Of a DNA stretch of 64,000 bases, positions 35,201 to 38,200 are shown piece by piece. The DNA lies in contig CM119267.1 of assembly GCA_051294375.1 (NCBI GenBank), positions 21,553,118 through 21,617,117 on the forward strand, given 5' to 3'. The translations under genes and the position numbers were made by a program. Position 1 is the first letter of the stretch. Every line of letters begins with the position of its first letter. Source of the DNA: Paraspadella gotoi (taxonomy: Eukaryota; Animalia; Chaetognatha). Under the pieces are notes generated by a model, which worked only from the letters and a program-made list of their open reading frames with translations, did no database searches and was not told where the DNA came from.

Positions 35201-38200
35201 GGGAGAATAAGTTCTCAAAGTGAAGCTGGATGGTATTCCAGTTGGATAACATAGAGTTCTTAAATTATATTTCTTACTGTTTGTTACGAATTTTTATAGT
35301 TAAACTAAAAGTTTCTATTTTGATATTTGGAGGGGGAACCTATTTCATATGAACTTACATAATACGGTTTATGCAATCGGACTTGGATTTAGTCCAAAAA
35401 AATCCCTGGCAACTTATTCGCTTTATATTTTTATTACCCCGCTTGGTTTTCGAAGTAAACAGACCGAACAGAGGCCTTATTTTCCCAAAACGTCCCATTT
35501 CATCCTAAATTCGGAATTAGGATAAATATTAGGTTAAAGATTAGGTCGGAGGTAAGGGTTAGGGATTAAATTAGTGATTAAGGTTTGGGATTAGGTTAGT
35601 GATCAAGGATCAGAATTAGGGCCGAGGGTTAGGGTTAAAAATTATAAACAAAGGTTAATGTTGAGGATTAATATTAAGTTAAGTTTAAGGATTAAGGTTA
35701 AATACAGTGTGTTCCAATGGTACTGTCTGTTAAGAAAAGCTTACTGCTCCTATACCAGATCGAGAAACTTTAATTCATTATAATGGATATACGTACTAGT
35801 ATGGAACATTTTATAGGATACCTAAATTTTAAAAATTGAATAAAGCAAACTCTTGTAGTTATTACATAAAACAATTATTAAAAAAATTTTTTCAGTGATT
35901 TTTTAAAAAAAATTCTTAAATTATATATTTTTTAATATTTATAAAATATTTTTTATAATATTAATTAAATAATATTTTAAATCTTTTTTTTAGATGCAGG
36001 TAAGAAACTACCTCATATTTTTAGCTCCACATCTTTTATAATACAGTAATCATTATTTTTAAAATTATCTATTTACCTTGTTTATATTACTTTTTTAATT
36101 GATTTAATAATATTTATATAATATTTATTGAATAAATAGCAACCATTTTGTTCTGGCTTTATGATTCAATCACTCACAACTTCAAATAATACAATTTAAA
36201 TATCAAATTAATTAGTATATTTTTATTAATTTTTGTATTTTTTTAAATATTTGTTTATTTGTTTTTATTAATGCATTTATTTTATACAAATTTAAATAAT
36301 TTATATCTATTTAAAATATTTTTAAGGCATTTTTTTAATAAATTTTATTTTAAAATAAAAAAAATTATTTAAAAATTAAAAAAGTAAGAAATTATAACTT
36401 ATTTTAATTAAATGTTTTGCAAAAAAAAGTGATAAAAATTGAAATATAGTATCATAAATGGTAAGAACTTATCTTTGACATTGTTATATTGTAGTCGGGC
36501 ATTGCCAAAGTTCACCCCGCCTATAAAGCATGACACCTTCAGTCCTGACCCAGTGGCTCATTGAGTAAAGCCATCAGCTCATGACCACTAGGTACCGGGT
36601 TCAATCCCAACCGGTACCTACCCTGTGAGAAGCGTGAGGACGGCCGTAAGCCGCCTTGGGGGTGTGGCAACCCCTCAAGCCTGGTTTCAAGCCAGCACCC
36701 GTTCCATGGCTACTAAAAGGGGTTATAGAAGTTACGGATAGTCATCTTCAGCCCACTTAGCGCCTTATCCACACTGGTGAGCCCATCCTGACCTCGAGCG
36801 TATTCCAACCTTCTGATTCCAGGCCCATGGAAGTGCTAAAGATTGCTCCCCTCCCTCCACTGGAAGCAGTGCAGGGTGGGTTACAATCTGGGGGGCATGT
36901 AGTCGGTTATTGCCTAGGTTCACCTCGCCTATAAGCATGATACCTTCAGTCCTGACCCGGTGGCTCATTGAGTAAAGCCATCAGCTCATGACCACTAGGT
37001 ACCGGGTTCAATCCCAACCCGGTATCTACCCTGTGGGAAGCGTGAGGATGGCCGTAAGCCGCCTTGGTGGCGTGGCAACCCCTCAAGCCTGGTTCCAAGC
37101 CCAGGACCCGTTCCATGGCTACTAAAGGGGGTTATAGAAGTTACGGATAGGAATCTTCAGCCCACTTAGCGCCTTATCCACAATCTCAGAAATACTGTAT
37201 TAAAAATCATATTTAATATTTAAAAATATATTGAATATTATGGTTAAAATTTAATTCTAGTATAAAAAAACAGTAATTGGGCGCTTTTAGAAAAGAGAGC
37301 CCAGGCGGAAGGCCAAATGCCTATCCATAAAAGGCATAAAAGAAATAAAAGGCCACTTAGAGAAAGGATACCAAGGCCCGTTCCCACCTGGCCGTCGGCG
37401 CCAGAGCGTATTCGCAGACTGGTCCCAAGTAGACATGAGGCTTGACCAGGCGATGGAACTCGACTGCCTGGTAAGGACCGTACGAAGGAGAGCATTTCGA
37501 GTCGCCAAAGTGCAGGCGCAAGTCCACCACGTCCTGAGAGAAGATGGATGGTGGTTAGTGGGATTGTGGAGTGGTTTTCTGTGAGTAGAAAAGGTTGGAG
37601 AGAGTTTTTGAGGACGATGGGGTGGTCTTTGGATCTATCTATCCGTCTATCAGTCTGTCTATCATTGTCTGTCATTCTTTATTTTCTTATATTTTTCTTT
37701 CTTTCATTATCTGCTGTTCTTCCCCTCTTTCTTTTTTACTTCATCGTCTTCCATATTTTTGTCTTCGCCAACTTGAGAAGGACCCTGGCTTCTTTTCAGA
37801 AACGCACTCATATTTCAAAACAACAAAGAAGCCAAAAACGTACACCAAAAAACTCAAAAGGAATATGTAAATCGAGTCAACACTAAACAGACAAAAATTC
37901 ATCGGAAAAGGTCTTTGCCAGCGACATGGGAAATCGCTTTAACTAAGAGCAAGCGCCATCTTTAGTGCTAGAGTTTTAAGATTCTTTCGACTCTCGGGAG
38001 ATTAGTCTTTTGTTAAACCCGGATGAATTAGGAATTAGGAAAGGGACCAATGGGGAGGGGGCGTTCTTTTAAGAAATAACATTTATCAAATAGTTTATAA
38101 TTTTTAAGTTTTCAAATTCCTTTAAAAAGTCTGTAATTTTTTGTCTCAATTACCAATTTTCAGAGTAAATTACAAATCATTTTATTTGTTTGAAATAATA

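Follow-up and report, generated by a model that had tools for sequence, protein, structure and literature searches.

What kind of mobile element has inserted a pair of GC-rich direct repeats into AT-rich DNA of the chaetognath Paraspadella gotoi, and does it use a self-cleaving RNA to move? The question is raised by a 693-bp island at positions 36490-37182 of a 64,000-nucleotide stretch of contig CM119267.1 (assembly GCA_051294375.1, forward strand positions 21,553,118 to 21,617,117), referred to here as the window; the genome is rich in microsatellites. A first-pass annotation, made from the letters alone, had described the island as a tandem 408-nt unit resembling a short interspersed element (SINE), with RNA polymerase III (Pol III) boxes and a permuted twister ribozyme. 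The analysis given below indicates that the insert is very probably a non-coding miniature long terminal repeat (LTR) retrotransposon of Helenus-like type, belonging to the TRIMs (retrotransposons in miniature with terminal repeats), with a twister-like motif in each LTR. Its parts are listed here; X followed by a number denotes a run of public contigs.

36486-36489 (+): candidate left target-site duplication (TSD), ATAT, from the sequence; three of four bases match the right flank
36490-36773 (+): 5' LTR, 284 bp, TGTAGT...TATCCACA, from the repeat alignment; contig loose ends at both borders
36554-36608 (+): tRNA-derived head of the 5' LTR, A-box-like motif at 36554-36565 and B box at 36598-36608 by the Helenus box definitions; a likely Pol III promoter, not a functional tRNA
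36625-36702 (+): twister-like motif of the 5' LTR in P5-permuted form, predicted cut U36647/A36648; in this copy P4 has damage at 36687, about 36691 and 36696
36648-37055 (+): predicted 408-nt cut-to-cut RNA monomer, putative circle precursor; folding z = -2.0 against 100 shuffles
36774-36897 (+): internal region, 124 bp, non-coding; one X10 contig (record 11) spans it with LTR on both sides
36775-36790 (+): putative primer-binding site (PBS), TGG one base past the LTR, proposed from the sequence and LTR biology
36840-36889 (+): internal hairpin found by folding, possibly a packaging signal
36890-36897 (+): polypurine-tract (PPT)-like GGGGGGCA abutting the 3' LTR; G-rich, like the ends of Helenus internal parts
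36898-37182 (+): 3' LTR, 285 bp, from the repeat alignment; 45 X1 contig loose ends at 37182
36961-37015 (+): tRNA-derived head of the 3' LTR by motif match, A-box-like motif at 36961-36972 and B box at 37005-37015
37033-37111 (+): P5-permuted twister-like motif of the 3' LTR, predicted cut U37055/A37056, from descriptor, alignment and covariance model; its parts are P5 37033-37/37107-11, bulged P2 37040,42,43/37058-60, G37044-A37045, T1 37046-48/37094-96, linker 37049-54, T2 37061-62/37099-100, P3 37064-86 and P4 37088-92/37101-05
37183-37186 (+): candidate right TSD, ATCT, from the sequence

The two direct repeats of about 284 bp that the first-pass annotation had noticed are confirmed, as are the places of their A-box-like and B-box motifs and of their common tail ends. 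The repeats are 93.0% identical across 286 columns and differ by 17 substitutions (11 transitions, 6 transversions) and three one-base indels, at a Kimura two-parameter distance of 0.063; judging by this LTR divergence of 6%, the 693-bp copy is old. Their start had been set at the motif cctataa and has to be moved about 30 nt upstream, where both repeats begin with TGTAGT; both finish with TATCCACA (…CCACA), i.e. they have TG...CA ends. The spacer between them begins with C-TGGTGAGCC, the PBS-like end, and finishes with the PPT-like GGGGGGCA. Ends of the TG...CA type, motifs resembling a PBS and a PPT, and a near-match 4-bp target duplication make up the anatomy of a TRIM of the Helenus kind and place the element in the LTR class. 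What had been taken for 1.7 tandem units left by rolling-circle insertion is thereby read as LTR-internal-LTR. No open reading frame (ORF) of at least 120 amino acids overlaps the 693 bp, and ARAGORN reported no tRNA in the window. The spacer hairpin folds as had been described. A second proposed pairing, TTCCATGG with CCATGGAA, is present in this copy and is not conserved: position 36832 differs in about 99% of the X1 depth and in all of the depth of X5, X9 and X10, and the pairing was rejected.

Public contigs aligned on 36400-37300 (8117 in X1 and 2955 in X5; X10-X12 are biofilm runs) reveal a dispersed multi-copy family with fixed TG/CA ends and an excess of LTRs. Among the 21 of 1244 loose-end entries listed, 52 X1 contigs end at 36490, 77 at 36773 and 45 at 37182, and 29 and 40 X5 contigs end at 36490 and 36773, respectively; a further 37 X1 contigs break at 36918 and hold the LTR start within their loose letters. 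The flanks at these loose ends are AT-rich and mutually unrelated, and none of the listed loose ends falls at a predicted cut site. Summed depth over the LTR exceeds that over the spacer 7.6-fold in X1 and 9.1-fold in X5, and at least 3.0-fold under the most cautious pairing of bins. Tandem arrays are disfavoured, since they would give a ratio of about 1-2. The excess fits many solo LTRs, or subfamilies with different interiors. The median summed depth of the X1 LTR bins is 1.15 million, against about 50-120 for a single contig, which suggests an LTR number near ten thousand, as an order of magnitude only, summed depth not being a copy number. Independent contigs cross the LTR-internal junctions (records 2, 3 and 11), one of them from a different study. 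At four to five places a letter common to both LTRs is absent from most contigs, as expected if one template gave rise to both. BLAST found no second copy of the family of the 693-bp element in the window. The anatomy, the fixed ends across dozens of contigs and the depth ratio replace the earlier description of a SINE-like, non-LTR tandem unit. A shorter-LTR subfamily stops about 10 bases past 37120, still downstream of the twister (50 + 36 contigs; 122 in a separate alignment). In X1, X5 and X9 contigs it shows, at 37116-37120, a G-rich CA end resembling the element's own PPT.

The second question is whether the LTRs carry a true twister. Helix numbering and the names T1 and T2 follow the usual twister convention. 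The nucleotides U36647, U37055 and G37044 named by the first-pass annotation, and the 408-nt interval between the cut sites, are correct, and the twister core (UAA, GA and U...AA in L4) is present together with both pseudoknots. A relaxed P5 descriptor matches the right LTR, and also 9 of 20,000 shuffled versions of that LTR, a chance rate that is optimistic because the descriptor was written after the motif had been seen. In the window it gives eight rows at six places, one of them a second convincing motif on the minus strand (41550-41625); the matches at 8077, 23749, 55840 and 53078 were judged to be chance. Unaided, MAFFT placed the second motif against the twisters of the LTRs, and 5 of the 15 pairs show changes on both sides. 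When these three motifs were made into a covariance model, it found three more (at 53205, 7162 and 41396; E 7e-6 to 5e-3), and a second round added one at 61518 and three weak ones. The features concerned are the following.

7106-7369 (-): diverged relative resembling a solo LTR, 264 bp; it has the element's TGTAGT...TATCCACA ends, and its tRNA-like head and twister are both decayed; no TSD
41550-41625 (-): twister of this variant that looks intact and lies in a different sequence family, predicted cut 41601/41600, from descriptor, MAFFT and folding
53205-53273 (+): same twister variant without P3 and with a perfect palindromic linker, predicted cut 53233/53234, from the covariance model

In the six-sequence alignment (A3), pairing holds in 84 of 92 cells; of the 16 pairs, 11 change on both sides, among them two of three T1 pairs and one of two T2 pairs, which are absent from the model. 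None of 500 shuffles reached these values, and slid controls stayed at or below 47%. The five tabulated motifs share AA, GA, UAA, a three-pair P2 with one bulged base and a 6-nt linker. Variation within the LTR family points the same way: all seven variable sites (at least 4%) in the visible middle of the right twister fall in P3 (P ~0.008, a value that rests on an estimate of 23/43 visible sites as P3, the GA strand lying outside the visible part), and at one P3 wobble the three biofilm runs X10-X12 have a Watson-Crick pair instead. A high-throughput test of natural twisters reported that imperfections in P1, P2 and P4 are tolerated and that the pseudoknots, L1 and L4 are sensitive (PMC11662667). 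In the right LTR twister only tolerated parts are imperfect and the pseudoknots, L1 and L4 are intact, which would agree with a potentially active right copy. On the strength of the covariation, the motif can with high confidence be considered a real member of the twister class, an atypical P5 variant, and within the family it is probably self-cleaving. The permuted twister proposed by the first-pass annotation is upheld as a fold, while the Rfam covariance search gave only a partial match; in the left copy the position of the fold stands, and the damaged P4 leaves it without a descriptor match.

Joined together, these parts suggest how the element may move. The combination of a Helenus-like TRIM, a tRNA-derived and likely Pol III promoter and a predicted pair of self-cleaving twisters would, with somewhat better than even probability, be transposed via a 408-nt RNA circle, in the manner proposed for plant LTR retrozymes; the circle route taken by itself is rated just as favourably. 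Also supported from the original proposal are a non-autonomous retroelement, a tRNA-derived head and a possible 408-nt circular intermediate. Pol III would start just upstream of the 5' LTR A box, about 100 nt before the first cut site, and the transcript, meeting no run of four T, would read through both LTRs and carry both twisters, the promoter of each LTR lying some 100 nt before its cut site. Cuts at 36647/8 and 37055/6, predicted from covariation and twister chemistry, would release a 408-nt RNA with 5'-OH and cyclic-phosphate ends, holding one promoter and the internal part with its PBS-like and PPT-like motifs, and having no terminal repeat. A ligase of the RtcB type may close the circle, by analogy with animal retrozymes, for which RtcB ligation was demonstrated (PMC7229834). 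A Gypsy-type reverse transcriptase primed at the PBS could then run round the circle and regenerate LTR-internal-LTR without an R region, by analogy with the circle-templated reverse transcription proposed for plant LTR retrozymes, whose RNA has no terminal repeat (PMC4918200). Finally, again by analogy, the integrase of a helper would make the 4-bp duplication in TA-rich DNA. TA-rich sites are favoured by some Gypsy integrases.

The linker of the twister raises a further possibility. In three families P1 consists of one pair, which encloses a self-complementary linker. As a cis fold this amounts to one pair round four bases, at +4.1 to +5.8 kcal/mol; as a duplex between copies the linker forms 4-6 pairs at -8.3 to -10.7 kcal/mol in five of seven motifs (three families). 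The innermost linker pair joins adjacent bases, which is impossible in one strand, and in one case both of its sides change. Imposing the LTR-LTR linker duplex on the fold carries a cost of 3.6 kcal/mol. In amphibians, hammerheads that combine a one-pair helix with a palindromic loop cleave much better as dimers (PMC7229834). The one-pair P1 with its self-complementary linker in three families points to cleavage of the twister as a dimer, at slightly less than an even chance. The two LTR twisters might pair via their linkers into a shared 6-bp P1, each site being cut with the GA strand of the other copy, which is the weaker step of the model. In the swapped fold of a two-LTR transcript, the 3' half of the left twister would be joined to the 5' half of the right twister, these halves being the two ends of the later monomer. 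Transcripts with two LTRs would thereby be cut preferentially, and a circle with its single twister would be left intact. An animal LTR retrozyme with an obligate-dimer twister, in which the LTRs excise each other and the circle cannot recut itself, is a tentative model, less probable than dimer cleavage as such.

Several observations speak against the reading of the element as a retrozyme-like TRIM with working twisters. As regards anatomy, (i) the flanks ATAT/ATCT form only a near 4-bp duplication (3/4), in a copy whose LTRs are 6% diverged; (ii) the A-box-like motif ends in TGAG, without the YGG typical of most Helenus LTRs, a feature that is not exclusive; (iii) the putative PBS with its TGG motif found no match in the Helenus consensus file; (iv) the absence of a T4 run from the element is not significant, as 2467 of 5000 shuffles (about half) also lack one, and was dropped as evidence; and (v) the solo-LTR-like relative at 7106-7369 has no TSD. 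As regards the ribozyme, Rfam Twister-P5 (RF02684) gives partial P4/L4 matches only, at 15.3 bits (E 6.6) and 16.8 bits (E 0.11) against a cut-off of 37.6; no Rfam twister was found in the whole window at E up to 1, no twister match for the motif at 41550-41625, and no hammerhead among the Rfam matches. Nearest-neighbour folding of the right LTR twister recovers only P4 (0.66-0.73), with P5 near 0, and the nested twister scaffold, with pseudoknots left out, lies about 20 kcal/mol above the minimum free energy; in contrast, the 41-kb motif folds with P4 and P5 at or above 0.95 and most of P3. P4 of the left-LTR twister is damaged in the 693-bp copy. A P2 of 3 bp with a bulge and a P1 of one pair are unlike the published examples shown in PMC8501958. 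The alignment A3 consists of six related sequences from one window, aligned to the analysts' own model, and its controls are not a probability. Self-complementarity is absent or weak in the linkers of the 7-kb and 61-kb motifs (seven motifs compared). Finally, the same variant occurs in contexts that are not LTR-like, and may be a captured passenger.

The best-surviving alternative, though an unlikely one, keeps the LTR element and lets the twister merely form the 3' end of a linear RNA, replacing a Pol III terminator, with no circle. The transcript would run from about 36545 to 37055, have a terminal repeat of about 100 nt and be copied by ordinary strand transfer. The lack of a T4 run in the element would suit such an RNA, although that lack is at chance level; Cassandra was described as a linear RNA with short terminal duplications (PMC10886601), and the 5' twister could be blocked during transcription, the minimum-free-energy fold being one without the twister. 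Since both LTRs hold the same fold, selective cutting would need an extra mechanism, and a linker dimer would cut both sites.

Less probable again is the view that a plain TRIM of Helenus type took up its twister from some other retroelement and bears it as a passenger, inactive or irrelevant. It agrees with the score below the Rfam cut-off, with activity that is predicted only, and with variant motifs lying in unrelated contexts of the window, two of them after possibly decayed ORF ends of Penelope-like elements. Set against it are the confinement of the family's variable sites to P3 in the visible stretch, the retention of the twister, with compensatory changes, in the diverged LTR-like relative, and its retention in the shorter-LTR subfamily, which ends just past it (loose ends at 37120).

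Slightly weaker still is the idea of a non-autonomous Penelope-like element or non-LTR retrozyme, in which a 408-bp unit following a truncated copy would mimic LTRs as a pseudo-LTR. There is precedent for taking non-autonomous Penelope-like elements for LTR elements by mistake (MRC1, PMC8557442), and animal retrozymes are described as derived from Penelope-like pseudo-LTRs (bioRxiv 10.64898/2026.07.22.740005). Such insertions are described with variable 5' truncation (PMC8557442), whereas the 5' end is fixed here; animal retrozymes are described without LTRs, PBS or PPT (PMC7229834), whereas PBS-like and PPT-like motifs lie exactly at the LTR borders here, between TG...CA ends; and the LTR exceeds the spacer 3- to 9-fold. 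That a SINE-like repeat was duplicated locally in tandem, or doubled by the assembly, might be suggested by the large near-identical duplications elsewhere in the window; this reading is largely refuted by the 20 differences between the repeats and by the independent contigs across the LTR-internal junctions, and is barely credible.

The other twister motifs of the window differ in their relation to the LTR family. For the solo-LTR-like relative at 7106-7369, the pair of ends has an expectation of 0.09 per shuffle (8 of 100 shuffles had one), and its global alignment with the LTR just beats 500 shuffles. Compared with the LTR head or tail, the flanks of the 41-kb motifs are not significantly similar (65-282 of 1000 shuffles were equally good), and membership of the 41-kb motifs in the LTR family was rejected on this shuffle-level similarity. 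At that place two twister-variant motifs, 41396-41471 (+) and 41546-41628 (-), face each other 75 bp apart; in the former the GA strand is lost, and a B-box-like motif lies upstream of it (41375-41386). Mutual pairing is possible between the P4/L4 regions of the two, which could be an inverted relic or a two-polarity arrangement. Decayed weak variants lie at 16282-16352 (+), at its duplicate 13135-13205 (+) and at 1569-1634 (+), with E 0.13-0.17; a 39-bp stretch common to these three precedes the twister, and its translation ends in an LGVNK-like run. This run may resemble the end of a Penelope-like endonuclease, a possible source of the twister. One more decayed twister of the variant (61518-61588, -; E 2.6e-5) lies beside an assembly gap. 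Rfam misses the bulged-P2, palindromic-P1 twister, of which 64 kb hold at least seven, so that present counts of animal twisters may be far too low.

A host repeat surrounds the LTR element and two other twister motifs, which may reflect the target preference of another transposon family. It has a 57-bp conserved motif (71-79% identity) and a GGTTAG-like block, and its places are 37246-37301 (-), 41820-41876 (-) and 53115-53171 (+), together with 35472-35597, 39415-39562, 53436-53557 and 63809-63962. The region 7444-33332 holds nested duplications of 2-8 kb at about 95% identity, either tandem duplications or a haplotype artefact, and within them a putative sulfotransferase-like ORF (9236-10354) and its frameshifted copy (24974-25692). 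The window further contains TTAGCC twelve times in tandem (46614-46685) and an ANF-receptor-like exon.

It remains to place the element among known systems, for which plant LTR retrozymes and Helenus TRIMs are a better comparison than the schistosome SM-alpha repeats and animal non-LTR retrozymes invoked by the first-pass annotation. Helenus TRIMs, including TRIMp3, are non-coding elements below 1 kb with tRNA-like A and B boxes in the LTRs, a PBS and a PPT (Kojima 2024, PMC10886601), and in animals the families show TSDs of 4 bp and many solo LTRs, with a Gypsy helper inferred for them (PMC10886601). The element agrees with them in its two LTRs, its 693 bp and lack of coding capacity, the tRNA-like LTR with B box GGTTC and A box TRGCY, and the G-rich PPT beside the 3' LTR (36890-36897); it differs in that its LTR runs about 165 nt past the B box and holds a twister. 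The word twister occurs nowhere in the main text of the Helenus paper (PMC10886601), and short motif searches of its consensus file (eight twister-core motifs, one PBS motif and one further variant) gave no twister-like context, matches broken across lines being liable to be missed.

Plant LTR retrozymes carry a type III hammerhead in each LTR, yield RNAs of 600-1000 nt and have a PBS, a PPT and a 4-bp TSD (Cervera et al. 2016, PMC4918200). The element resembles them in a self-cleaving motif, here predicted, in each LTR, in its PBS-like and PPT-like motifs and 4-bp TSD candidate, and in a cut-to-cut RNA without an R region, which would need a circle before reverse transcription. They are hammerhead-bearing plant elements for which polymerase III goes unmentioned (PMC4918200), whereas this is an animal element with a twister, a tRNA-derived head and a unit of 408 nt, for which a circle is proposed. 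It likely works like an LTR retrozyme and, having no hammerhead, is not filed as one. Animal non-LTR retrozymes form circles of 170-400 nt from tandem units with a hammerhead and without LTR, PBS or PPT (PMC7229834; bioRxiv 10.64898/2026.07.22.740005). The element shares with them the nature of a small animal retroelement and departs from a tandem unit in its fixed TG/CA ends, PBS-like and PPT-like motifs and excess of LTRs.

Among twisters, the type-P5 model RF02684 has the same strand order, UAA, GA, both pseudoknots, a 9-nt L4 and P4; the element's motif differs in its score below the gathering threshold, in the 3-bp bulged P2 and in the single-pair P1 with its self-complementary linker, and so lacks a P1 of at least two pairs and an unbulged P2. 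The T-variant twisters of Schistosoma Perere-3 are P1-type and lie at the 5' end of a non-LTR element, where the cut coincides with the insertion end (PMC8501958); they too are twisters on an animal retrotransposon, while the cut predicted here falls within the LTR, some 158 nt past the LTR start. The literature searched (mostly open-access, with listings and abstract beginnings, Repbase being outside it) contained neither a twister situated in an LTR or TRIM nor a dimeric twister from nature. Outside the window, seven JGI metagenome pattern matches were all without BLAST similarity or twister structure, and one IMG/VR and 14 GTDB matches scored at most 23.6 bits on the variant model; among these IMG/VR and GTDB matches, the six alignments listed were rejected for want of a full P4/L4, the best lying within a protein-coding frame.

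The class assigned by the first-pass annotation is therefore changed: the element is most likely a Helenus-like TRIM of LTR-retrozyme-like habit with an atypical twister. In the sources consulted, LTR retrozymes have so far been described from plants and with hammerheads only, and animal retrozymes without LTRs. If the proposal is true, a Pol III-headed TRIM of an animal with a twister in its LTR would mean that the circle route is independent of both ribozyme class and kingdom, would give twisters a second retrotransposon role besides that in Perere-3, and would suggest one way in which a Pol III TRIM sets the ends of its RNA. Were the dimer model also to hold, the element would represent a natural dimeric twister and an LTR-type retrozyme outside plants.

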